A DNA stretch of 10,694 nucleotides, taken from a virus. Lineage: Duplodnaviria; Heunggongvirae; Uroviricota; Caudoviricetes. Below the pieces are notes generated by a model. It was not told where the DNA came from. It ran no database searches and saw only the letters and a program-made list of their open reading frames with translations. How positions within the stretch are numbered: the stretch's first letter is position 1; each line of letters starts with the position of its first letter. The DNA lies in IMG/VR virus record IMGVR_UViG_2711768038_000002; one strand, 5' to 3'. The translations under genes and the position numbers were made by a program. Positions 1,159 to 10,694 of the stretch are shown piece by piece.

Positions 1159-1349
1159 AGAACAATAACAGCGCGTTGCAGCAATTACAGGAAACATCTT
1201 GTTACATACTTGGTTTTATGTCACTAACAAACTAGAGAAATTATGCATGAATAGACATATCGATCGTTATTTTTGTTGGTGATATACTTAACTGAATTTT
1301 ATGCACAACCATGTTGCGAATTTACCACATCATTACAAGGCAAACGGAA

Positions 1350-1667
1350 ATGAATAAGGATAAATGCTTAAATATAATTATATTAATAATCATTATAACA
1401 ATAATTGTTATTTCTTTTTATCCTATGTCATCAAGCTCAAAAGGGCATGATACGCAAAGTATTTCAGGTGACAACTTTAAATTAAGATCTTCTTTCTCAA
1501 GAGAATATTCATCATGCATATCAAACCTCAAAATGATAGCGCTAGACTTTGCTGGTCATAACATAGATTTCAACAGCCATAGCCAGTTCATAGCTTCAAG
1601 TGGCGAGGAAAAAATATTAGTAAAATGCACAAAAGATAATAAGTTACTATACATGCAAAATAAATGA
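1350..1667 (+). CDS. Hypothetical small membrane-anchored protein (moron), 105 aa
   Basis: ATG at 1350 with a weak GGA-type RBS; an in-frame ATG at 1311 has no RBS. The N-terminus has a single hydrophobic segment (LNIIILIIIITIIVISFY) followed by a hydrophilic Ser-rich domain. The gene is very AT-rich and is followed immediately by a strong hairpin terminator. No recognisable family. Confidence 0.4.
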   Translation: MNKDKCLNIIILIIIITIIVISFYPMSSSSKGHDTQSISGDNFKLRSSFSREYSSCISNLKMIALDFAGHNIDFNSHSQFIASSGEEKILVKCTKDNKLLYMQNK

Positions 1668-1673
1668 GAATTT

Positions 1674-1700
1674 CCGCACGCTTATCGCGTGCGGTTTTTT
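1674..1700. terminator. Rho-independent terminator between convergent genes (canonical for + strand, weaker for - strand)
   Basis: Perfect 8-bp stem CCGCACGC / GCGTGCGG (1674-1681 and 1687-1694) with loop TTATC, followed on + by TTTTTTATTTTTT. It sits between the stop of the small + ORF (1667) and the stop of the - strand membrane-protein gene (1699-1701). Confidence 0.65.
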
Positions 1701-3066
1701 ATTTTTTAGGTAATATATAGTATATTACCTTATATGAAAAATAGACAAATGATACAGTTATTATATTTTTCAAGAAAATAAATAAAAAGAATTCAAGACT
1801 CTCCCTTGCCATAAAAAATGAAAAAGGCATTGTCATAAGTGCAGCTATTTGTAATACACCAACTCTCCTCATCAATATGATTTTATCAAGAAATCTAAAA
1901 ACAACGCCTGAGATAACATATGAGCACCAGAAAAAATACTTTCCGAAAATAACAAGCGATGACCCAAGCAAAGTTGATGCCATATTCAATCCATTGCTAA
2001 GACCAAGAGCACTCACGGTAAAGTAATATGAGCTATTCATTGTGACAATTGGTTTGTCAGACCATATGAATCTTGGGATAAACCCTGAAAATTGAGTAAA
2101 GAAATAATAAATACCACCAACATTGCGATCATTGCTAAAGTATTTAACAGCTATACTCTGATAATTGATAGGAGATACGCTATCAGCTAAATATCTGACT
2201 ATAATGCCAAAAAGAGAGCCAGACGCTGAAATATCAACATCTGAGTATCTCACTATAGCCATTACACCAATTAGAATTAAGCACACAGAGCCTATGCATA
2301 TTAATTTCAACATGCCAATTAAGCCTCTAGAGTGGCAAATAAGAGCAACAATAAACATTGCCGAAAACATTACATTTCTTGAGCCACCAATAAGTACGTA
2401 ATATGCCATCCCAAATAACAATGACATTATAATTGATTTAACGAATACATACTTATCGTCAGATGTAATTGCATACACTATAACAGCAGAAACAAAAGAT
2501 GACATTATCATTATAATGACACCACTACCAGCATTCCCGCCAAGCTTTAAAGCATAATCATCAGAATTAAAAGATATGCCGTTTATGGCATAAAAAGCCA
2601 TCATCCCAACAAAACTTAAAAACAACGTTGTTCTTACAAATAATTTTGGGCTACCAATAAAATATTTATCAGAAAAAGTTATTTTATTTCTTCCTGCCGC
2701 TGTATGAGAGAATACATAAAACAAAACTATACCAATAAACGACAACGTAGACACATCATTTATATATTGATACGGCATATATTCTGCAGAACTAACTTTT
2801 GCCCCAACTCTAAACGGAAGCGATATATACCCAAAAAAATGAGTAAAAACGAGGAATAACATCCCAACAGATTTGAATGACACGCCATGTTTTTTGAATG
2901 ACACGGCACTTAGATATATTAATATTATGGCATACAACGCAGGTAGCACATAAGTAAAAAATGATTCATAAATATTCATAATATTGTATGTAAAAATGAC
3001 TATTTTTACCCGATCTTTAAAGAAAGTACAGGATGATAGCGCGTTTCTACGCGCCATCATAGTCAC
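1699..3066 (-). CDS. Polytopic inner-membrane protein, putative O-antigen modification enzyme (Wzy-like polymerase candidate); lysogenic-conversion position
   Basis: 455-aa ORF with at least 10 long hydrophobic segments and a roughly 60-aa loop rich in Arg and aromatic residues between TM blocks. Very AT-rich compared with neighbours (by eye). The start ATG (3066-3064) overlaps the tailspike stop TGA (3065-3063) as ATGA; alternative in-frame starts lie near 2979. It occupies the position immediately downstream of the tailspike where P22-like phages carry oac or gtr conversion genes. The family call is inference only. Confidence 0.6.
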
Positions 3067-5246
3067 CTTACAACAAATTTGCCATTGCTAATGTCGTTAA
3101 CTAGTGTTGCCACTATGTTAGCAACATCCTTCGTAGATAGGGTGTTTACGTCTCCACCGCGTAACGCACCGGAATTGGTAAATGGATACTGCTGAGGTTG
3201 TGAGCTATTGGCAAACTGGTTGTTAGCCTCATAACGTTTTGTTGGTACAGGGTTGTACCCAATACTGCCTGTGGTTGTGTCAGGAGCCACGCAGTTCGTA
3301 ATGTTCACTATAGCGGCAGAACCACTACCATTTGTATATATTGGCCTGTTAACTGTCCCGAATGGTTGCACAGCTACCAGTCTGTTAACAATAACACTAT
3401 GTGTGGCTAGTGCCTGTAAATAAGATTCTGCGCTCCCGTTGCACCCCCTCAAGTTCACATTATCAACCTCTATGTGGCGGCAGTTAATGGTGACGATATA
3501 ATGACCATTTTCTGTGTTAGGGTAAGCGCCTACTATGCGAACATTTTTTAATGTTAAATCTGTGGTTGGCACCGCAGCAGGCCCACCGTTGAAAACAAAC
3601 CCTTTTGCACCATTTGCAAGTGCGTGTATCGTAATGCCGTCAAACTCGATGTCGGCAAGATTAGTCGTGGTATTGGCTGAGTTTGCCAAAAAATAAACAG
3701 CCTCAGCAGAGCAACCTGATATCAAGAAGTTAGAAAAACGCATCCTTGTGTTTTCTACCGGATAGAAGCGGCATAACAAACCCTGCGAGCAGTTACGAAT
3801 AACAACGTTATCATAGGATACGTCACTAGCTCCTTCAATTGCGACACCTGCATTCGAACTTTCTACATATAGTCCAGTAACTACTCCATTACGGAAATTC
3901 CCACGAAGCCCGTGGCTTTCACAGTTTTTGATTGTGGCGGCGTTTATGTTAACTCTTGTAATAGCTGTCCCTTCCCCGCTTCCGTTCACAAGGTCGTCTG
4001 ATTGAACACGCAAACCGTTACCGCCAGAGGTATTAATGCTCACATCGTGAATCATAAGATTAAGAGTACGGTTTGGCCGGTGTGATGAGAAGAACAAAGA
4101 TGAGGCCCAAGTGTTTCTGCAACGGATATGATGGACGTGCGCCTCTGTAGGGTCATTGACAATGATCGCCATGCCAGTGCGGTTGCTGCCATCTGGATCT
4201 TGAATTTTCCCACGACCACAATCATGTGAGTACAGATTATCGGCAAGAACCCATCTCCCATAATCCATCGTTACGTTGCTATTCCATGCCCCCTGCAATT
4301 CACACCCTGAAAGCTCAAGTGTACCTGCAGATTGCATGGCCAAACCAACCCCTGGGTCAAATGAAGCATTCTGCCGATAAAAATCAAACAAGAAATTACC
4401 GACAATGCGTATATCATATGGAGTATAGTCAAACTCTTGATTTGATTCGTTCCATGTCCGTGGGGATCTGAGCCATAATTGTCTGGAATCTACCGTCACT
4501 TTTGGCAATAACGGCTTTATGAGGATGTCTCCCTGAATATTAAATATACCTTCTACAGTTACGGGAGAGTAAGCGATCCCGATATTTCCAGATAGTGGAA
4601 GTAGTCTACTAAGTTGAGCGTCATTTTGTGCAATTTTCCAACCAGAATTAACCTCATTAAAAAATGATATTGGGTAAAGTTCAATATTATCATTAATTAC
4701 AGTTGAGTCATAACTGGTAATTGTCAATGGTGATGATAATGGTGTGCTCATCATCATAAGGGCGCCATCAAGCCTAACGAATCTTACACCTTCGGGAATT
4801 AAGTCTCCTATTTTTGCATCAATTCCAATTTTATTAGGATAAACCTCACCACCTAAAAATCCATTCATTCCTCGAAGCCAAGATAGATTTAACATGACTG
4901 ATAACTGATCTGGATCGTACTTCAGCACATTAGGGAAATAGAACTGCTGTGATCCATATGCATCGTACACAGCCATAGAATGCCCTTGTACAGTAACGAA
5001 CTTAGCAATCTGTCCGTTATATACAGGGTAGCCAGCAGCGTTAATAATTATTGGTTGCGAAACGGGAATGTGAGAGCCGTCTTCGTTCTCCACATAAACC
5101 TGAATTTGGTTTTCAGGATTTACCGGGTCCGTGTCAATTTTACCGATATAAATTTTGCCATTGGCTACGGCTTTAAAAGAACGAGCCATAGTGAAGAGTT
5201 GCGAAGGCATACTCACTACAACATTGGCATTTATTGAATCTGTCAT
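3063..5246 (-). CDS. P22-family tailspike protein (conserved N-terminal head-binding domain plus divergent beta-helix receptor-binding/depolymerase domain)
   Basis: 727-aa uninterrupted ORF with GGAG 8 nt upstream of ATG 5246-5244. The first ~110 aa ([59 protein letters not shown]...[17 protein letters not shown]...NVLKYDPDQ) match the P22 gp9 / Sf6 / HK620 tailspike head-binding domain as I recall it. The remainder shows repetitive N/G/V-rich beta-helix-like segments. Confidence 0.9.
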
Positions 5247-5304
5247 TTAATTTGCTCCAGATGCAAGGAATCGCCGCAGCATGGCTACGGTGAATTTTGG
5301 GCAT

Positions 5305-5327
5305 AAAAAAACCCAGCCGAAGCTGGG
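5305..5327 (-). terminator. Rho-independent terminator acting on - strand transcripts, upstream of the tailspike gene
   Basis: Stem CCCAGC (5312-5317) / GCTGGG (5322-5327), loop CGAA, flanked on + by a 7-A run (5305-5311), which is a U-tract on the - strand immediately after the hairpin. Confidence 0.55.
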
Positions 5328-5379
5328 TCGTTGCGTTGGTTATCTGTCAGTAGTTATGCACTGGCTGAAGGATTTGTAC

Positions 5380-5409
5380 AAAAAACCACCTGACGGTGGG
5401 TTAATTTTT
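5380..5409 (-). terminator. Second hairpin terminator candidate (mainly - strand; weak on +)
   Basis: Stem CCACC (5386-5390) / GGTGG (5395-5399), loop TGAC, with a 6-A run upstream on + (U-tract on -) and TTAATTTTT downstream on +. Confidence 0.45.
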
Positions 5410-5427
5410 GCATTTACCTGGGCCATA

Positions 5428-5456
5428 TTGACTACTTATAAAATGAGATCAATATT
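5428..5456 (+). promoter_or_regulatory. Candidate sigma70-like promoter for the small basic protein gene
   Basis: TTGACT at 5428-5433, a 17-nt spacer, then AATATT at 5451-5456, about 35 nt upstream of ATG 5493. Pattern match by eye only. Confidence 0.25.
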
Positions 5457-5492
5457 TAATCGCCCAATAACGGGTGTATGTTGAGGTATATC

Positions 5493-5672
5493 ATGGCGAA
5501 AAAACCAGGTGAAAACACAGGAAAAAACGGCGGAATATACCAAGAAGTTGGCCCACGCGGCGGTAAGAAAGACAATTTTGCCACCGTCAAGGACAACGAA
5601 AGGCTTCCACCAACAACAAAGCCAGGTCATGGCTGGGTATTGGATAAGCGAACTCCAGACAGCAAAAAGTAA
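5493..5672 (+). CDS. Hypothetical small basic Lys/Gly-rich protein, 59 aa
   Basis: ATG 5493 is preceded by GAGG (5483-5486) at 6-nt spacing; the upstream in-frame ATG at 5478 lacks an RBS. Stop TAA 5670-5672 is followed by a hairpin terminator. No family recognised. Confidence 0.45.
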   Translation: MAKKPGENTGKNGGIYQEVGPRGGKKDNFATVKDNERLPPTTKPGHGWVLDKRTPDSKK

Positions 5673-5678
5673 TAATCA

Positions 5679-5700
5679 AGCCGGTTCACTCCGGCTTTTT
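5679..5700. terminator. Hairpin terminator shared by the convergent small-protein (+) and zincin-like (-) genes
   Basis: Stem AGCCGG (5679-5684) / CCGGCT (5691-5696), loop TTCACT, followed on + by TTTTT. The stop codon of the - strand gene (5686-5688) lies in the loop. Confidence 0.5.
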
Positions 5701-6051
5701 GATATGTCGCTCGCAGAACTCAACAAGCCTGCTCATTAAGTAGCAGTAAGTCTCGTTGGCTCTTCCTGGTTCAACATCAACACCTACCCTTGAGCAGATA
5801 TCGAATGCCATGTGAGCGCACTCATGGGCAATAGTAGATAGTTTGCCATTGAACACGCCTATCACATGCAAAACACCATTCTCGCTACTCATTGTATGAG
5901 ACGCTCCGTTGGCGTCCGAGTCATGCACGTCAACGCCAAGTTTTTGATGCAGGCGTTGCCATTCTGGAAAGTCTCTACAAAACACAATTGTACCGCTCTC
6001 AAAGAGCGGAACGAGCATCTTTGGTACGTTTCCAATGTTAACTTTTTTCAT
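5686..6051 (-). CDS. Putative zincin-like metallopeptidase (HEXXH motif; ImmA/IrrE- or SprT-like), 121 aa
   Basis: ATG 6051-6049 with AGGA 4 nt upstream. The protein contains AHECAHMAFD (H-E-x-x-H zinc-binding motif) preceded by a LGVDV...NGKLSTIAHE arrangement resembling ImmA/IrrE-family peptidases. The family call is from motif recall, not search. Confidence 0.55.
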   Translation of the reverse strand: MKKVNIGNVPKMLVPLFESGTIVFCRDFPEWQRLHQKLGVDVHDSDANGASHTMSSENGVLHVIGVFNGKLSTIAHECAHMAFDICSRVGVDVEPGRANETYCYLMSRLVEFCERHIKKPE

Positions 6052-6085
6052 GGTATCCTGCGCAAAACTAAGGAGAGTTAATTAT

Positions 6086-6571
6086 ATGAAAAAATCACTG
6101 TTAATTATCCCGCTTCTGCTGGCTGGGTGCGCAAAAGTAAGCGACTATCAGGCAAGTTGCGAGCAACGCTATCCAAAGCTTAGCGATATGGCTAATTGCC
6201 TTGATGCCAGCTTGAAGAACGACTCTCGCATGGCATCAGCACCAACACCTAAGCTTTATGTCCTTGCTGCGAAGATGCTCGGGCAAGGTGTCGATGAAGG
6301 CAAGATAAGTGACACACAGGCAAGACTTGAACTTCAGAATCTTTATGTTCAATTACAAAGCCAAGAACAAGCACAACAAATAGCACAAAGCCAAGCATTC
6401 CAGCAGGCTTTATTGAATTATCAGGCTGTAAACACAATGCAAGCGATCGAGCAAAAAGCGCGCCAGCCTGTTATAACTCAACCTTACCCAACACGCGTTG
6501 ACACATATACAAACTGCAATTCAGGATTTGGAAACACGGTAACATGCAACAGTAGCAGTAATATAAGATAG
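6086..6571 (+). CDS. Lipoprotein (signal peptide with lipobox LLAG-C), Gln-rich central region; candidate superinfection-exclusion or moron product
   Basis: ATG 6086 is preceded by AGGAGAG (6071-6077). The N-terminus MKKSLLIIPLLLAGCAK is a classical lipoprotein signal peptide with lipobox. The mature part has a Gln/Ala-rich, probably helical segment and several Cys. The ORF-track start at 6035 lacks an RBS and would bury the signal peptide. Confidence 0.7.
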   Translation: MKKSLLIIPLLLAGCAKVSDYQASCEQRYPKLSDMANCLDASLKNDSRMASAPTPKLYVLAAKMLGQGVDEGKISDTQARLELQNLYVQLQSQEQAQQIAQSQAFQQALLNYQAVNTMQAIEQKARQPVITQPYPTRVDTYTNCNSGFGNTVTCNSSSNIR

Positions 6572-6584
6572 TTATATCTTATTT

Positions 6585-8432
6585 TTATTGCTGTTCTGCT
6601 GTAATTTGGCTTGAAAGTATAGGGCGTATCGCATTTGCAGCATTATTTAGCGCTCTTTCATAGGCTGGTGTTCCTGCTTTGGTGTTTGCCAAACGTAAGA
6701 GAGCATTCCTTGCTGCTTTTGACTCATACAAGCGCATCATTGCACCGAAACCAGCCTCAAGCCCCATTGATACGCCAAGAGTCGCAGTTGCGCCAATCGT
6801 CCTTATCCTGTTGGCTTGCGATTGCCCCGTCTGAGTTACTACATTTGCGGTGTCTGACCTTGCTGTTTGCTGTAGAACTTCATGAAGAGAATCAAGCTCT
6901 TTCATGTGCTTTCCAGAAAAAATAGTGTTGTAAATTTCACCGCCTGACTGAGATTTCAGCTTATTAACTTCAGTGATGAACTTGGCTGGAGAGTCACCGG
7001 CCTTTTCCGCTATTTTGCTGACGTAAGCTGCACGCATAGCATCTTTCCCTTTATCATCCAATGCGCTCCAGATTCGTTTCACGTCAGATGGTTTTCTGCT
7101 TAATACAACGGTATTTATAAGTTCAGGACTGGCTTCACTGCTTGCCTTGTTGAGCTTGTTAGCAATGTTTTTATTAAGCACCTTATTATAAACGTTTGCA
7201 TAATCGGAATTTGCTTTAAGGTATTTTGCTGCGTCTGATGCACCGAGGTTTTTAGCAACTGCGTTACGAAGGTCTTTTGACATTGCATTCTCTACCATAT
7301 TGGTAGCTGCTTTTGCCTGGTTGGGGAAGACCATAGCATCTCCCTGAACATTAGATCTAAATGCTGTTCTGTGCTGACGCAAGAGATCAAACGTAACATC
7401 CAAATCAGTTGCAGGGTTAGCTAATTCTTCACGTAGGTTACGCAAGGATGTAAGCAGGCTTTGATTGGCTGAAGTCCCAAGCCGTTCCTGTCTTGCGATC
7501 GCTGCATTCAGAGCATTCATGGTATTTGTGGTATCAACTGCGGCATTACCCATTTTATTGGTGACGTCATTGATAACAGCGCCAGCAGCATCCTTCCGCC
7601 CCCTTAACGTGGTGGTCAGAGATTTCACCACATCATCAGGGTTGTACTCACCAAAACGGTCAAAATAATTGCTTACCAGCTTACTACGCGTTGCATATTG
7701 CTCCGCTCGCTTTAAGCCTGTCCCGAGCAAAGCCCCCTCGGCATCCTGAGTAAGGCCGCGAGTGAAAGCATTTTTCGGCGGGATAACATCAGATGTCATT
7801 GGTGTCACGCCCATCGATTCTGATGTGGCAATTTTCTTCGCCACTTCTGGCGCAATATCACCTTTTATAGCCGTTATTCCACGCCCTATTCCCTTTGCTG
7901 CTGCGGAAAGAACCCCCTGAGCGGCAAGGTTAACTCCGGCATTTTTGGCTGCATTTTGTGCGAAATCGCCTTTCTGATTTGCGGCCTCTGCCAGTGATCC
8001 AATAGCCATGCTTCCTGCCGTTCCAACGCCTGGAACTAAATACCCGCCAATTGTTTCACCGGCTTGCGCGTAAGGGTCGGTCGGTCGATCTACTGGACGA
8101 TAGACATCGTCCAAAACCTTGGGGCCACCAAGCCCCTGGCTGATTGCATTAATCAGACTTGCGCCACCCTGCAATACGTCAAATGGTATGTTTACCAGAC
8201 CACGACCAGCCTGCTCTGCAATTTGCCCTGCACTTTGCCCGCCTGTGAGCCAATCGCCAGCTTGTTGCATCAATGATGGTTCTTCACGTGCTGGTTCATT
8301 ATTGGCCTGATTAACTGTTTGTTGCTGAACAGCCTGACCAGCAAAATACTCATCAATGGCGGTGCCAATATCTTCCGTGCTCGTACCATCAGGGAAGGTA
8401 AATGTCTTACCGTTTGCAGTTACTTTCATCAT
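6585..8432 (-). CDS. P22 gp16-like ejection (DNA-transfer) protein
   Basis: 615-aa ORF. The N-terminus [33 protein letters not shown] matches my recollection of P22 gp16, and the size is close to P22 gp16 (about 609 aa). Start ATG 8432-8430 overlaps the stop TGA 8431-8429 of the upstream gp20-like gene as ATGA. Confidence 0.85.
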
Positions 8433-9896
8433 TCCACCGTAAATTGAATTCCTGATTTTGAGGTATATGATCCGGATTGACTCTGCTGCTGTTGGGTATT
8501 TGCCGGTTGTTGGCTATTGCTCTGTTGTTGACTATTTGCAGCACTTGAAACCACCAAAGCATCATAAACGCGACCAGACTGACCACGTAATGAGTTATAT
8601 TGGCCCTGCATTTTTCGCATTTTTGTTTCAGTAGCAGCCTTGGAATCACCGGGCTGAGGCAGGTACATTTTGGAATACTCCTGCATCTCTGGCAGAGTAA
8701 TTGCTGCACCTGTTTCTGGGCGCAAAATTGCATACAAGGCGTCTCTCGCATTTACCATATATTGCTGCTCCGCTGGTGATAGGCTTAAATTTGCAATAGT
8801 CCCATCACCAAGAGAGCGATTTATTAATGCAACTCGCTTAGGGTCAATGCTTTTACTAAGCTGATTCATTGAGTCCATTGAATCTTTTAATCGCAAAGCA
8901 AATCCTGCCGCCTTCTTGGAACCCTCATTAGCCTTATCTATGATGCTTTGCGCTTGTGGCAAGCTAATTGGTTTAATGCCATCACCAGATATAGGTTGGT
9001 TTAGTTTTCCGGCTTCCTCGCTGCCATCGGTGTAATACTTAGTTACCGAGCCATCAGGATTGGTTTCAACCTTAAGTAATTTCTTAGCATTGGGATTAAT
9101 TCCCGCCGCTGCCGCAAATGCCGCTGCACCATTTGGATCCGCCTTTAACATTTGCGCGTACTGATTGTAATTCTGCATTGCAGCTGTTGGTGCATATGCT
9201 GACGTTAACGCATTTGCTCGGCTAATATCCTGCCCTCTCGCCTGAAGCGCCTCGCCAGCCTGATTGCTGCGAATCGTCTCTGCCAACTCGCCACGCTCAA
9301 TATCCCGACCAGCCATCTTGTCCTGAACATTGAAGTAATCAATCGGACCAAGAGCAGCCATTCCAAGGTGATCAACAAACTCACCAAATCCTGAAGGGTT
9401 CTGCTGATACATCTGAGCAACGCTGTTAGGGTCAACACCGACGCGAGTCAGTTCCTTGGCGTTGTTTTGCAGCCATGATTGCATTGCTTCTGGAGACGAT
9501 GACGCAAGGCGTGCGCCAGCCGCTAAGGTGCCGATAGAATTACGCTGGTCTTCATCAATGAATCCCATGCCTTTACGAACGGATTCAATCTGGTCTGGAT
9601 ATTGAGTAGCCAACTGACGCAAAGCACCGCGATCACCAGACGCATAAGCATTAGCGTACGCCTGCTGAAATTCTTTCTGCCGCTGAGCCTGCTTTTCCTG
9701 CTGAACCCCCCCCCGCAATACCTGAAAGGCCTTGCAAAGCAGTCAGCCCAACATTGTTAGCGCCTGAACGCTCAATATCATTGTTCTGCCTGATAAGCTG
9801 AAGCGTATTGCCGATGTCATTTACGCTCGGAGCGTTTGAGTTGACGCCGCCGATACCAGCCAACAATCCGCCGTTTGTTCCTTGCCAAGTAGCCAT
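8429..9896 (-). pseudogene. P22 gp20-like ejection protein gene interrupted by a frameshift in a homopolymeric tract
   Basis: Two overlapping - strand ORFs in different frames: 9896-9651 ([10 protein letters not shown]..., 81 aa, ATG with a GGGG RBS) and 9718-8429 (429 aa, opening on a TTG codon). They meet at a run of 9 C on + (9706-9714), which is 9 G on the coding strand. Removing one G gives a continuous reading ...[13 protein letters not shown]... of about 489 aa, comparable to P22 gp20. Confidence 0.75.
9706..9714. repeat. Homopolymeric C9 tract (G9 on the - coding strand) at the gp20-like frameshift site
   Basis: Direct count in the sequence: ctgaa ccccccccc gcaata. Confidence 0.9.
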
Positions 9897-9905
9897 GATT
9901 ACCCC

Positions 9906-10184
9906 TTAAAACAACGAGCCAAGCAATCCGATACCAGCACCAATGCCAGCGCCCCAAGGCGTTGATGTTCCCAAAAGGCTGGCAAGACCTGCACCGGCAA
10001 TCGCACCAGACGTGCCGCCGCTAATTGCAGTCTGAAGACTTGATGGTTTATTGGCATTTGCAGCGGCAAGAGCTGCGCTTTGCTGTGCAATGCTGCTCAT
10101 GTTGTTGGCGTACGTCTGCCCGGCGTTTGCCTGACCTTGCAGAGCACCAAGCCCAACGTTTGCCAGATTGTTGTAATTGCTCAT
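9906..10184 (-). CDS. Small Ala/Gly/Asn-rich protein with C-terminal Gly-rich hydrophobic segment; positional equivalent of ejection protein gp7 (possibly 5'-truncated)
   Basis: ATG 10184-10182 (the ORF track extends to a GTG at 10208). Stop TAA 9908-9906 lies 9 nt before the gp20-like start and overlaps its RBS. At 92 aa it is much shorter than P22 gp7 as I recall it (about 229 aa). An in-frame stop lies at 10226-10224, and upstream of it the late operon is absent. Confidence 0.5.
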   Translation of the reverse strand: MSNYNNLANVGLGALQGQANAGQTYANNMSSIAQQSAALAAANANKPSSLQTAISGGTSGAIAGAGLASLLGTSTPWGAGIGAGIGLLGSLF

Positions 10185-10268
10185 CTGGTTTGATAACAAT
10201 CCTCGCACTCGCGGGGATTTCTTTTATCTGAACTCGCTACGGCGGGTTTTGTTTTATGGAGATGATAA

Positions 10269-10436
10269 ATGCACTTCCGAGTCACAGGTGAATGGAATGG
10301 AGAGCCATTTGACAGGGTTATCGAAGCAGAGGACATCAACGACTGCTATAACCACTGGATGATATGGGCGCAGATAGCACATGCAGACGTAACCAATATT
10401 CGAATTGAAGAACTGAAAGAACACCAAGCCGCCTGA
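10269..10436 (+). CDS. Hypothetical small protein, 55 aa
   Basis: ATG 10269 with GGAG (10258-10261) upstream; sequence MHFRVTGEWNGEPFDRVIEAEDINDCYNHWMIWAQIAHADVTNIRIEELKEHQAA. The stop TGA 10434-10436 sits in the loop of a strong terminator hairpin. It falls below the ORF-track size cut-off and has no recognised family. Confidence 0.4.
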   Translation: MHFRVTGEWNGEPFDRVIEAEDINDCYNHWMIWAQIAHADVTNIRIEELKEHQAA

Positions 10437-10448
10437 TGGCGGTTTTTT
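10429..10448 (+). terminator. Rho-independent terminator
   Basis: Stem CCGCC (10429-10433) / GGCGG (10438-10442), loop TGAT, followed by TTTTTT (10443-10448). Confidence 0.65.
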
Positions 10449-10493: not shown

Positions 10494-10694
10494 ATGCAAC
10501 ACGAACTACAACCTGATTCACTGGTTGATTTGAAATTCATCATGGCTGATACTGGCTTCGGTAAAACCTTCATCTATGACCGGATTAAGTCCGGCGACCT
10601 GCCAAAAGCCAAAGTTATCCACGGTCGAGCAAGATGGTTATATCGTGACCATTGTGAATTCAAAAATAAGCTCTTAAGCCGCGCCAATGGGTAA
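10494..10694 (+). CDS. torI: Excisionase / recombination directionality factor, AlpA-family winged-helix (TorI-like)
   Basis: 66-aa ORF with GGAGA (10481-10485) upstream of ATG 10494 and stop TAA at 10692-10694. The central FIMADTGFGKTFIYDRIKSGDLPKAKVIHGRARWLYRD fits the AlpA/Xis DNA-binding pattern. Length and sequence match my recollection of KplE1 TorI; not verified. Confidence 0.8.
   Translation: MQHELQPDSLVDLKFIMADTGFGKTFIYDRIKSGDLPKAKVIHGRARWLYRDHCEFKNKLLSRANG

Follow-up and report, generated by a model that had tools for sequence, protein, structure and literature searches.

Phage T5 Llp and phi80/N15 Cor are much smaller than the lipoprotein described here (about 60–80 residues) and have the protein receptor FhuA as their target. 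Because O-antigen is what P22-like phages adsorb to, a lipoprotein encoded by their prophages must have a target other than that of Cor and Llp. P22 itself encodes the exclusion protein SieA, whose gene is carried by about one third (22 of 66) of the sequenced P22-like phages (PMC10883804); 85 bp of DNA upstream of sieA are enough for exclusion-competent expression (Leavitt 2024, PMC10883804). A further precedent is Ltp of Streptococcus phage TP-J34, a prophage-expressed lipoprotein that, in the account cited in PMC10883804, blocks DNA injection via the tape measure protein. Here, a lipoprotein gene was analyzed within a stretch of 10,694 nucleotides of viral DNA, referred to as the window.

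The window is a defective, heavily deleted P22-like prophage remnant of the KplE1 type. An int gene stands at base 1 and xis ends on the last base, an arrangement that raised the suspicion of a circular mini-element. This idea was dropped once the two products were recognized as IntS and TorI, whose genes lie at the two opposite ends of KplE1-type prophages.

The lipoprotein ORF runs on the plus strand from ATG 6086 to a TAG at 6569–6571 and encodes 161 residues. The start is assigned to ATG 6086 because an AAGGAG lies 10 nt ahead of it and because every aligned homologue begins at the MKK... position. An alternative start at ATG 6035 is unlikely, as it has no Shine-Dalgarno sequence and the extension that it adds is non-conserved. 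A total of 90 homologues were found at E ≤ 0.001, and the PHROG 6067 profile covers positions 1–161 of the 161 residues (E = 2.9e-109). The dN/dS of the mature protein is 0.04–0.06 in close pairs and does not exceed 0.14 in any region; the lipoprotein is under strong purifying selection. The homologues, the low dN/dS and the full-length PHROG match together identify the ORF as a real, conserved gene and not a chance ORF. Recent import marked by atypical base composition was considered and rejected, the gene having 44% GC and its neighbours 46–47%. The gene is on the strand opposite to the tailspike, gp16, gp20 and gp7 genes and is convergent with ejection gene 16, so that both the strand and the position beside the ejection-protein genes given in the earlier note are confirmed (Table 1).

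Table 1. Positions of the lipoprotein gene, its parts and its flanking features in the window.
Feature	Position	Strand	Basis and remarks
hkcC homologue, divergent neighbour	5686..6051	-	In conserved P22/HK620 module; outside the cassette
Stretch equivalent to putative PsieA (TTGGTA, 19 nt, TTTCAT)	6021..6051	+	P22-pbi annotation and ungapped alignment
Shine-Dalgarno AAGGAG	6070..6075	+	10 nt ahead of ATG; last block common with DNA upstream of P22 sieA and HK620 hkcB
Lipoprotein CDS	6086..6571	+	161 aa and TAG stop; ORF reading, PHROG match, homologues, dN/dS
Signal peptide with lipobox LLAG-C	6086..6130	+	Direct sequence reading; Cys15 codon 6128-6130
Conserved N-terminal helical-bundle domain (predicted), residues 16-95	6131..6370	+	Alignments; AF2
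Long helix (predicted), residues 76-125	6311..6460	+	Distal Gln/Ala-rich part is the stalk; composition, family alignment, AF2
Pro-rich linker (residues 126-137), then predicted C-terminal β-hairpin (138-160) with C144/C154	6461..6568	+	AF2
gp16 ejection protein, P22 type, 74% identical	6585..8432	-	Convergent with the lipoprotein gene; stop codons 13 nt apart

The key context of this gene, which is not in the earlier note, is the sieA slot. The lipoprotein gene lies where sieA genes do in P22-like prophages, in the interval from gene 16 to gene 9. Window positions 5250–6079 are about 98% identical to P22 and HK620 DNA, and an ungapped alignment of positions 5960–6075 with the DNA upstream of sieA in P22 or of hkcB in HK620 contains one mismatch in each case. 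Similarity to both phages stops right past the AAGGAG, placing a mosaic junction at 6075/6076. From this near-identity through the Shine-Dalgarno sequence and the abrupt divergence that follows, the lipoprotein gene is recognized as a cassette that precisely replaces P22 sieA, set behind the putative promoter and Shine-Dalgarno module of that gene. One and the same upstream module precedes sieA in P22, hkcB in HK620 and E. coli YP3, a gene for a YobH-family membrane protein in E. coli HCM-25C-3, or the lipoprotein gene. The putative PsieA stretch and the start codon of hkcC, the divergent gene, overlap; no sigma-70 site was found directly ahead of the lipoprotein gene in a consensus scan, and PsieA stays putative.

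Homologues with 50–97% identity adjoin gene 16 in convergent orientation in every P22-like context examined, and their hosts span ten genera (E. coli, Salmonella, Proteus, Morganella, Serratia, Klebsiella aerogenes, Yersinia, Pectobacterium, Providencia and Tatumella). At least 145 of 5426 complete E. coli genomes carry the gene, among them that of the Crohn's-associated strain LF82. A scan of genome contigs, restricted by its narrow peptide patterns, returned only five loci. No P22-type SieA was detected at 13 P22-like lipoprotein loci by tblastn with a type A query, and no extra SieA-sized gene was called in the gene tables of 16 of 19 P22-like contexts, SieA types B and C being excluded solely through this absence of extra called genes. 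The lipoprotein gene follows mnt, a lysogeny-maintenance repressor gene, after a 17-nt gap in Serratia prophages and in Proteus phage Brookers, and it ends an arc/mnt-led operon in Pectobacterium. The gp16 proteins encoded next to lipoprotein homologues measure 615–906 residues. The idea that the lipoprotein varies together with one gp16 type was rejected, since a single subfamily is found beside gp16 types that are only 29–35% identical at the lowest.

The copy in the Gally prophage of LF82, GALLYPH_13, is 97.5% identical to the window lipoprotein. RNA-seq of LF82 grown in LB places GALLYPH_13 second among the Gally prophage genes, behind the c2 repressor gene, with 70 normalised counts versus a median of 15.6 (PMC9928086 S1 Table); this level is modest, about 4.5 times background, and is under the authors' threshold for a moron (PMC9928086). 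In macrophages the gene reaches log2 10.3, and the adjoining injection-protein genes log2 2.3–4.2 (PMC9928086 S1 Table). The Gally copy is thus transcribed in the prophage state, uncoupled from the late genes. This expression transfers only partly to the window copy because the upstream region of the Gally copy differs from that in the window; prophage or early expression independent of the late structural genes is known from the Gally copy.

Compared with LB, GALLYPH_13 is up about 16-fold at 1 h and about 5-fold at 6 h in macrophages, and about 4-fold in DMEM (PMC9928086). Induction that is strongest in DMEM and macrophages counts against superinfection exclusion in that it fits host interaction or envelope stress equally well. 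It would suit a lysogenic-conversion factor in the style of lambda Bor, which would benefit the host independently of phages by altering the envelope, with effects on stress, host or macrophage survival, or adhesion. Such a factor would also be in keeping with wider-family members being found at a conserved site of the Pectobacterium chromosome and on an element that has an RND efflux system as cargo, and with the lipoprotein gene being still intact in the heavily deleted remnant of the window. However, expression of the entire right end of Gally increases in macrophages, mnt and the tailspike gene included (PMC9928086), so that the induction of GALLYPH_13 is regional and not gene-specific. 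The enterobacterial subfamily was seen only in the P22-like sieA slot in all contexts examined, which would be odd for a general fitness gene, and a Pfam scan revealed no similarity of the lipoprotein to the Bor, Lom or TraT families. A conversion function of this kind is unlikely.

The lipoprotein signal claimed earlier can be read directly from the protein, which contains an MKK n-region, a hydrophobic SLLIIPLLL segment and an L-A-G-C lipobox with Cys15. The sequence MKKSLLIIPLLLAG followed by Cys15 matches the lipobox consensus [LVI][ASTVI][GAS]C, and Cys15, predicted to be lipidated, would be the N-terminal residue of the mature protein. Ala follows at +2 and Lys at +3; the lipobox Cys is kept in 108 of 115 family members, and none of these 108 has Asp at +2. 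Given Ala at +2, the E. coli Lol sorting rule would direct the lipoprotein to the outer membrane. The mature protein has no hydrophobic segment and ends in a hydrophilic C-terminus (TNCNSGFGNTVTCNSSSNIR).

The N-terminal domain contains the invariant C25 and C38 and a DxQAR.ELQ.LYV motif in the alignments, and AF2 models residues 21–100 with pLDDT values of 90–96. Gln and Ala make up 13.6% and 10.9% of the mature protein, respectively, and residues 76–125, predicted as a single continuous helix, include 15 Gln in 50 residues. The Gln/Ala-rich probable coiled segment of the earlier note therefore holds as a Gln-rich helix; its heptads are weak by eye, and an oligomeric coiled coil is at most a possibility. 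The length of the stalk varies within the family, the linker measuring 17–67 residues. The T-x-C..G...C-x-S motif of the hairpin is conserved among homologues. Comparison of the window with Serratia locus L006 gave a dN of 1.05 in the C-terminal module and 0.026 in the stalk; the module is one that subfamilies exchange. The protein, described earlier as Cys-containing, has five cysteines (15, 25, 38, 144 and 154). C25 and C38 are invariant (115/115 family members) and the C-terminal Cys pair is found in 101 of 115; the two conserved pairs probably form disulfides.

These features also bear on a role in lysis or another late step, in which the product would be an o-spanin, a u-spanin or a release helper shielding progeny from cell debris. 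A phage-encoded lipoprotein with a predicted outer-membrane location could fit such a role, and T5 Llp also protects progeny phage. However, the protein lacks the C-terminal transmembrane segment that a u-spanin needs, and no i-spanin partner is adjacent or embedded. The lysis cassette is distant from the lipoprotein gene, which is encoded on the strand opposite to the late operon and has hkcC and gp16 as neighbours, and Gally has a holin-lysozyme-Rz cassette elsewhere. The absence of the lipoprotein gene from P22, HK620 and most of their relatives marks it as non-essential, and the Gally copy is transcribed in the lysogen while the late genes are silent. Homology to a spanin or other lysis component, which the earlier note regarded as evidence against its own proposal, was looked for in PHROG and Pfam and was not found. 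Lacking a spanin match in either database and placed outside the lysis cassette, the protein is highly improbable as a lysis component, and a spanin or lysis identity is largely refuted.

Searches beyond close homologues agree with the earlier view that the family is of unknown kind. Pfam and NCBIfam scans with the lipoprotein and ten distant relatives gave no match; PADLOC-DB v2 defence models gave 0 families at E ≤ 1 for the lipoprotein and none for the ten relatives; and the sole PHROG match, 6067, is of unknown function. A sequence-profile search of the PDB returned noise only (E > 0.7), and a Foldseek search of the viral structures in BFVD returned nothing at E ≤ 0.001. Homologues with known function, which the earlier note advised seeking, were not found by these sequence and structure searches, and literature searches for the lipoprotein, for accession numbers and for a lipoprotein at this locus produced no functional data on any family member.

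The window lipoprotein, a full-length member of PHROG 6067, belongs to an unnamed wider family of at least 238 clusters at 50% identity. The common architecture is a lipobox, a two-Cys N-domain, a variable linker and a C-terminal Cys hairpin. The window protein is in a long-stalk enterobacterial subfamily tied to P22-like prophages, whereas many relatives are 120–140 residues long, have short linkers and reside in other mobile elements or in chromosomes. Distant homologues are located where core genes give way to cargo genes in serine-recombinase/primase elements, some of them directly adjoining restriction-modification, AbiU-like, TIR or Dsr1-like genes. As the family also occurs outside P22-like phages, a target limited to P22-type ejection proteins cannot hold family-wide. 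One alternative kind of target is an enzyme or toxin acting in the periplasm, which the lipoprotein would neutralise as an immunity or inhibitor protein. The candidates are peptidoglycan hydrolases (the SLT domain of phage gp16, gp4, or a T6SS or bacteriocin effector), and precedents exist in T4 Sp, which inhibits gp5 lysozyme, and in lipoprotein lysozyme inhibitors. We consider this possibility quite unlikely.

The lipoprotein may instead be a superinfection-exclusion factor that acts after adsorption and fills the role of SieA at the outer membrane, a proposal that we hold tentatively, as falling somewhat short of an even chance. Circumstantial support comes from the sieA slot and promoter, from transcription in the prophage state and from the defence-gene neighbours of distant relatives; the envelope features, namely the lipobox, the absence of Asp at +2 and the invariant Cys pairs, also count in its favour, as do the purifying selection, the constant position beside gene 16 and the operons shared with mnt. 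As an accessory cassette ('moron') of a P22-like prophage, the gene would be transcribed on its own through the sieA promoter and Shine-Dalgarno module, apart from the late operon. Sec export and processing by Lgt, LspA and Lnt would yield a mature lipoprotein of 147 residues (about 16 kDa), which the Lol system would carry to the outer membrane and place in its periplasmic leaflet. In that position, a disulfide-stabilised helical bundle would lie near the membrane, with the Gln-rich helical stalk presenting a disulfide-stapled β-hairpin toward the peptidoglycan. We infer an exclusion phenotype and a molecular target from this layout and context: the lipoprotein would bind to, or get in the way of, the DNA conduit that gp7, gp20 and gp16 of incoming P22-like phages are building across the envelope, or would act on a host component, in the outer membrane or the periplasm, on which the conduit depends. 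In both cases, DNA delivery by adsorbed phages would be blocked. The gp20 dodecamer forms the pore in the outer membrane, with a helical bundle directly below (bioRxiv 10.64898/2026.09.03.749273); a lipoprotein in the inner leaflet of the outer membrane would sit at this place, which is therefore a plausible target site.

A broader proposal, possible but doubtful when taken as a whole, is that the wider family represents a new envelope-level class of defence against phage entry with the window protein as its founding functional example, acting from the periplasmic side of the outer membrane on the podovirus conduit or other DNA-delivery machines and being cassette-interchangeable with SieA. 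If the exclusion role is true, one conserved promoter module would drive interchangeable barriers at the inner and the outer membrane, and the lipoprotein would provide a natural probe of the gp7/gp20 conduit, newly described in structure, in its part close to the outer membrane. A function would also be provided for an unannotated family of several hundred sequence clusters. The gene may influence phage susceptibility and phage-therapy host range in E. coli.

Among known systems, P22 SieA (types A–C) shares with the lipoprotein the slot between genes 16 and 9 (tailspike), the orientation convergent with gene 16, the upstream promoter and Shine-Dalgarno module, an envelope-located product and the status of an optional accessory of P22-like prophages. 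The two proteins themselves differ. SieA spans the inner membrane several times and has a FxRYPxEAxxFNK motif on the cytoplasmic side, whereas the window lipoprotein is secreted, has no transmembrane segment other than its signal peptide and is predicted to be located in the outer membrane. No sequence or fold similarity between them was detected; tblastn with P22 SieA matched P22 alone, and the motif was not found in the lipoprotein. Of the two, SieA is the one with demonstrated exclusion.

The alternative genes of the slot, HK620 hkcB among them, lie behind an identical promoter and Shine-Dalgarno module, and each is predicted to encode an envelope protein. HkcB combines a transmembrane segment at its N-terminus with a coiled coil, and the gene of a YobH-family protein can also occupy the slot. 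In a Pectobacterium prophage, a C-tail-anchored protein is encoded upstream of the lipoprotein in one operon, and a second, unrelated lipoprotein is encoded before gene 16. The sequences of these cassettes are unrelated to the lipoprotein.

T5 Llp and phi80/N15 Cor resemble the window protein as small phage lipoproteins with a lipobox and Cys, a predicted position on the periplasmic side of the outer membrane and genes away from the structural operon. The comparison with Cor and Llp drawn in the earlier note is sound as an analogy, but PHROG, Pfam and BFVD Foldseek searches gave no sequence or fold relationship. Ltp is unrelated in fold and sequence as well, and differs in its Gram-positive host, its anchoring on the outer face of the cytoplasmic membrane and its siphovirus target. 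Nevertheless, as portrayed in the paper that cites it, Ltp provides the closest precedent, namely a lipoprotein directed against the injection machinery, through a virion protein of the entry channel, and not against the receptor.

Upstream of the lipoprotein gene, a stretch of the window ∼98% identical to both P22 and HK620 leads into different genes. In P22 the next gene is the superinfection-exclusion gene sieA, in the same orientation as the lipoprotein gene and convergent with gene 16; in HK620 it is hkcB. Ungapped alignment over the last part of this stretch revealed one mismatch each with P22 and HK620. The matched sequence takes in the 31-nt putative PsieA, as annotated in P22-pbi, and the AAGGAG, and the three genomes part company at the base right after it. 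This near-identity followed by abrupt divergence identifies the lipoprotein ORF as a precise cassette replacement of sieA. The same 120-nt module precedes hkcB in E. coli YP3, a YobH-family small membrane protein gene in E. coli HCM-25C-3, and a lipoprotein gene encoding a 100% identical protein in E. coli Ecol_881. Elsewhere the cassette is joined to other upstream DNA; phage VSe13 keeps only the last ∼40 nt of the module and Gally, the P22-like prophage of E. coli LF82, only the SD. SieA is necessary and sufficient against DNA injection by P22-like phages, which escape it only through changes to the C-terminal portions of gp16 and gp20 (Leavitt et al., 2024; PMC10883804). The 85 bp 5′ of sieA, with the putative PsieA, are enough for full exclusion from a single chromosomal copy, and sieA is present in only 22 of 66 sequenced P22-like phages (PMC10883804). 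The lipoprotein is mentioned neither in that study nor in the other literature searched.

Positions of features in the window and in compared loci
Feature	Position	Strand	Remark
intS	1-1158
Lysogenic-conversion module	1311-3066		GC 30-32%
Tailspike	3063-5246	opposite to lipoprotein gene
Stretch shared with P22 and HK620	5250-6079
orf59a/HkcD-like ORF	5478-5672
Terminator-like hairpin	5678-5697	bidirectional	AAGCCGG...CCGGCTT
hkcC homologue	5686-6051	-	121 aa
Ungapped alignment with P22 and HK620	5960-6075
PsieA	6021-6051		putative promoter
AAGGAG (SD)	6070-6075		10 nt 5′ of ATG 6086
Lipoprotein ORF	6086-6571	+	161 codons, stop TAG
C-terminal module compared with Serratia	6461-6568
Serratia counterpart in that comparison	L006 6001-6474
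gp16	6585-8432	opposite to lipoprotein gene	stop 13 nt from lipoprotein stop
gp20	8429-9718	opposite to lipoprotein gene
gp7 fragment	9906-10208	opposite to lipoprotein gene
GALLYPH_21-region homologue	10193-10448
torI	10494-10694
GALLYPH_13	L014 19971-20486
Slot cassettes	L019 2623-2952; L020 2488-2829; L024 4254-5846
Elements with distant homologues	L028 5883-10848; L029 6001-8797; L032 4633-9580; L030 7001-14135

The slot behind the conserved promoter module holds differing envelope-protein cassettes, among them HkcB, with an N-terminal transmembrane segment and a coiled coil, and the YobH-family protein. The adjoining hkcC homologue belongs to PHROG 1365 (function unknown) and has no Pfam match. 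Its sequence IAHECAHM fits the HExxH motif that zinc metallopeptidases typically carry, and whichever cassette comes next, the protein shows 99-100% conservation across P22, HK620, and E. coli prophages. The hairpin between the orf59a/HkcD-like ORF and the hkcC stop matches the tORF59A terminator annotated in HK620.

The position of the gene is conserved across genera. In all 19 further P22-like contexts (17 prophage loci plus Gally and VSe13), a homologue 50-97% identical to the window protein lies between the convergent gene 16 and the mnt/hkcC/tailspike region. The hosts include Morganella (L003-5), Serratia (L006-8), Providencia and Tatumella (L010, L011, L013), E. coli (L018, L023), Klebsiella aerogenes (L021), Yersinia ruckeri (L022), and Pectobacterium (L024), together with phages Gally, Brookers, and VSe13 (L014, L016, L017). 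The adjoining gp16 proteins are diverse, ranging from 615 to 906 aa, some with SLT domains and some only 29-35% identical to the window gp16, which is of P22 type (74% identity); the lipoprotein thus goes with more than one type of ejection protein. Type A SieA was found by tblastn in none of 13 lipoprotein-bearing P22-like loci, and gene tables for 16 of the 19 contexts show the slot free of any further gene for a membrane protein the size of SieA. In Serratia prophages and phage Brookers the lipoprotein gene follows mnt after a 17-nt gap, and in Pectobacterium it is the last of four genes in an arc/mnt-led operon. Since Mnt maintains lysogeny as a repressor, the lipoprotein is predicted from this arrangement to be expressed in lysogens. 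The Pectobacterium prophage also encodes a 91-aa C-tail-anchored protein upstream in the same operon, and an unrelated second lipoprotein (117 aa, lipobox LSAC) between the homologue and gp16.

The lipoprotein N-terminus, MKKSLLIIPLLLAG followed by Cys-15, contains a basic n-region, a hydrophobic core, and a canonical lipobox, with Ala at +2 and Lys at +3. A start at ATG 6035 was rejected; it lacks a ribosome-binding site and is used by no homologue. The mature protein of 147 residues contains 13.6% Gln and 10.9% Ala, with 15 Gln among the 50 residues 76-125, and four cysteines beyond the lipobox (positions 25, 38, 144, and 154). The features described in the earlier note, namely the lipoprotein signal, the Gln/Ala-rich segment, the cysteines, the location beside the ejection-protein genes, and the strand opposite the structural genes (tailspike, gp16, gp20, and gp7 fragment), are all confirmed. 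AlphaFold2 modeling gave a mean pLDDT of 66 with a 28-sequence alignment and 84.2 with 115 diverse relatives. In the model, helices 18-28, 32-44, and 53-70 and the start of helix 76-125 form a compact bundle (pLDDT 90-96), the remainder of helix 76-125 juts out as a stalk, and a Pro-rich linker (PVITQPYPTRVD) connects it to a β-hairpin (138-160). The model puts C25 and C38 on neighbouring helices, and each hairpin strand carries one of C144 and C154, making two disulfides likely. The exception is the coiled segment proposed earlier: its heptad pattern is weak, so a coiled coil as oligomeric state is conjectural.

The protein matches PHROG 6067 (function unknown) end to end (E = 2.9e-109), and Pfam, NCBIfam, and PADLOC scans gave no match even at E ≤ 1, in line with the earlier note, which gave the family as unknown. 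A word-indexed protein search returned 90 relatives, all named ones from Enterobacterales, including two near-identical clusters of 871 and 153 member sequences. The gene is present in at least 145 of 5426 complete E. coli genomes and in five deposited phage records: Gally and vB_EcoP-720R6 (Escherichia), VSe13 and MS2 LVA (Salmonella), and Brookers (Proteus). The ORF is a real, conserved gene: pairwise dN/dS between close pairs is 0.04-0.06 for the mature protein and at most 0.14 in any region. An exhaustive profile search extended the family to 238 clusters (50% identity) at E ≤ 0.001, 94 of them at E ≤ 1e-10; ten distant members all matched PHROG 6067 only, and none matched Pfam. Most members are 120-170 aa long and share a common plan: a lipobox, an N-domain with two invariant cysteines and a DAR.EL..LYV helix, a linker, and a C-terminal T-x-C...G...C-(S/T)-(Y/R) hairpin. 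In the 115-sequence alignment, the lipobox Cys is present in 108 members and the terminal Cys pair in 101, C25 and C38 are invariant, Asp at +2 is absent throughout, and the linker spans 17-67 residues, the window protein being a long-stalk form. Members of the enterobacterial subfamily swap their C-terminal ∼30 residues as a unit: the window and Serratia versions differ little in the stalk (dN 0.026) but strongly in the C-terminus (dN 1.05). The gene is internally mosaic, with three C-terminal types that share only a C..G...C.S motif. In P0089, a 167-aa E. coli protein annotated as a recombinase (Pfam ERF PF04404), residues 13-62 match lipoprotein profile positions 1-52 (E 3e-8); fused genes, a wrongly called start, or a join made in assembly may explain the match.

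Distant homologues extend beyond P22-like phages. A chromosomal copy in Pectobacterium atrosepticum adjoins a holE-like theta gene. Because theta genes also flank the tailspike region in P22-like prophages of Morganella and Proteus, this copy may have been left behind by a prophage. On metagenomic contigs, homologues ∼25% identical have a constant place in small elements, at the border of variable cargo: a serine recombinase gene comes first, then primase/helicase and two small genes, then the lipoprotein gene in divergent orientation. The cargo is a BamHI-like restriction-modification pair with AIPR/AbiU-like (PADLOC 2e-36) and TIR/ThsB-like genes in one element type, a Dsr1-like gene (2e-37) in a second, and an RND efflux system in a third. 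These settings indicate that the wider family is borne by mobile elements, often, not always, beside defence genes.

The window opens with the ATG of IntS and closes with the stop of TorI, annotated in RefSeq as 'response regulator inhibitor TorI'. It is a defective prophage of the KplE1/CPS-53 type, in which the integrase gene stands at one end and the excisionase gene at the other. Of gp7 only the C-terminal ∼98 residues remain, fused at ∼10197 to a counterpart of the GALLYPH_21 region of Gally, next to xis; the head, lysis, replication, immunity, and recombination genes, ∼28 kb in all, are missing. The remnant has no late-gene activator and the lipoprotein gene keeps its own putative promoter, which is compatible with continued expression. 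The tailspike, gp16, and gp20 are also intact, so an intact lipoprotein gene is not by itself proof of selection. The conversion module between intS and the tailspike encodes a predicted membrane protein of 118 aa (+) and a Wzy/ECA-polymerase-like protein of 455 aa (-; NCBIfam 2e-19). The start codon of the latter and the tailspike stop overlap by 4 nt, and a similar O-antigen polymerase-like gene occurs in HK620.

Misson et al. (2023; PMC9928086) re-analysed RNA-seq data of E. coli LF82, where the Gally copy, GALLYPH_13 (LF82_138), is 97.5% identical to the window protein. In stationary LB its normalised counts were 78 and 62, compared with a median of 15.6 for the prophage, 4.5-fold over background and second among Gally genes to the c2 repressor gene (PMC9928086 S1 Table). 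Gally was called 'devoid of morons' (PMC9928086), the value falling just below the authors' 5-fold cut-off. Log2 fpkm in replicates 1/2 was 6.3/6.0 in LB, 7.9/8.2 in B1, 8.0/8.2 in B6, 10.3/10.3 in MB1, and 8.7/8.5 in MB6 (B, DMEM; MB, macrophage samples per the table caption; MB6, THP-1 macrophages 6 h post-infection), and the three adjoining injection-protein genes stayed at 2.3-4.2 in all conditions (PMC9928086 S1 Table). The Gally copy, whose upstream region differs from the window's, is thus transcribed from the prophage independently of the late operon. In macrophages, both GALLYPH_13 and the divergent gene beside it, GALLYPH_14, climb to log2 10-11 (PMC9928086 S1 Table). Position, strand, and expression all argue against a spanin or other lysis component, as do the missing partner and C-terminal transmembrane segment; the lipoprotein is dispensable and Gally has a separate Rz cassette, and such a role is effectively excluded. 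Induction in DMEM and macrophages and the family members outside phages would suit a phage-independent host-fitness factor, an unlikely identity for the lipoprotein.

The simplest reading is that a prophage-expressed protein of the envelope stands in for SieA. Post-adsorption exclusion of incoming phage is the likeliest of its candidate roles, at a probability just short of even, and the earlier note's exclusion idea is partly supported: the sieA-slot context is much stronger than that note knew. According to the Lol rule of E. coli, lipoproteins without Asp at +2 reach the inner leaflet of the outer membrane, where this one is predicted to reside. In an in situ structure, gp20 and gp7* form an outer-membrane pore with a seven-helix bundle directly under it, and the channel then crosses the peptidoglycan to gp16 (bioRxiv 10.64898/2026.09.03.749273). 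A stalk of ∼4-5 nm with a terminal knob would be well placed to cap or misdirect gp20-gp7* assembly; alternatively, the target could be a host component needed by conduit assembly. Action on either is what we infer for the exclusion factor. A periplasmic immunity or inhibitor protein is quite improbable, and would merge with exclusion if its target were a phage hydrolase. The lipoprotein is a concrete, cheaply testable exclusion candidate, not a surprise: its protein family is uncharacterised, and the setting, prophage-encoded envelope exclusion and the sieA cassette slot, is of a known kind.
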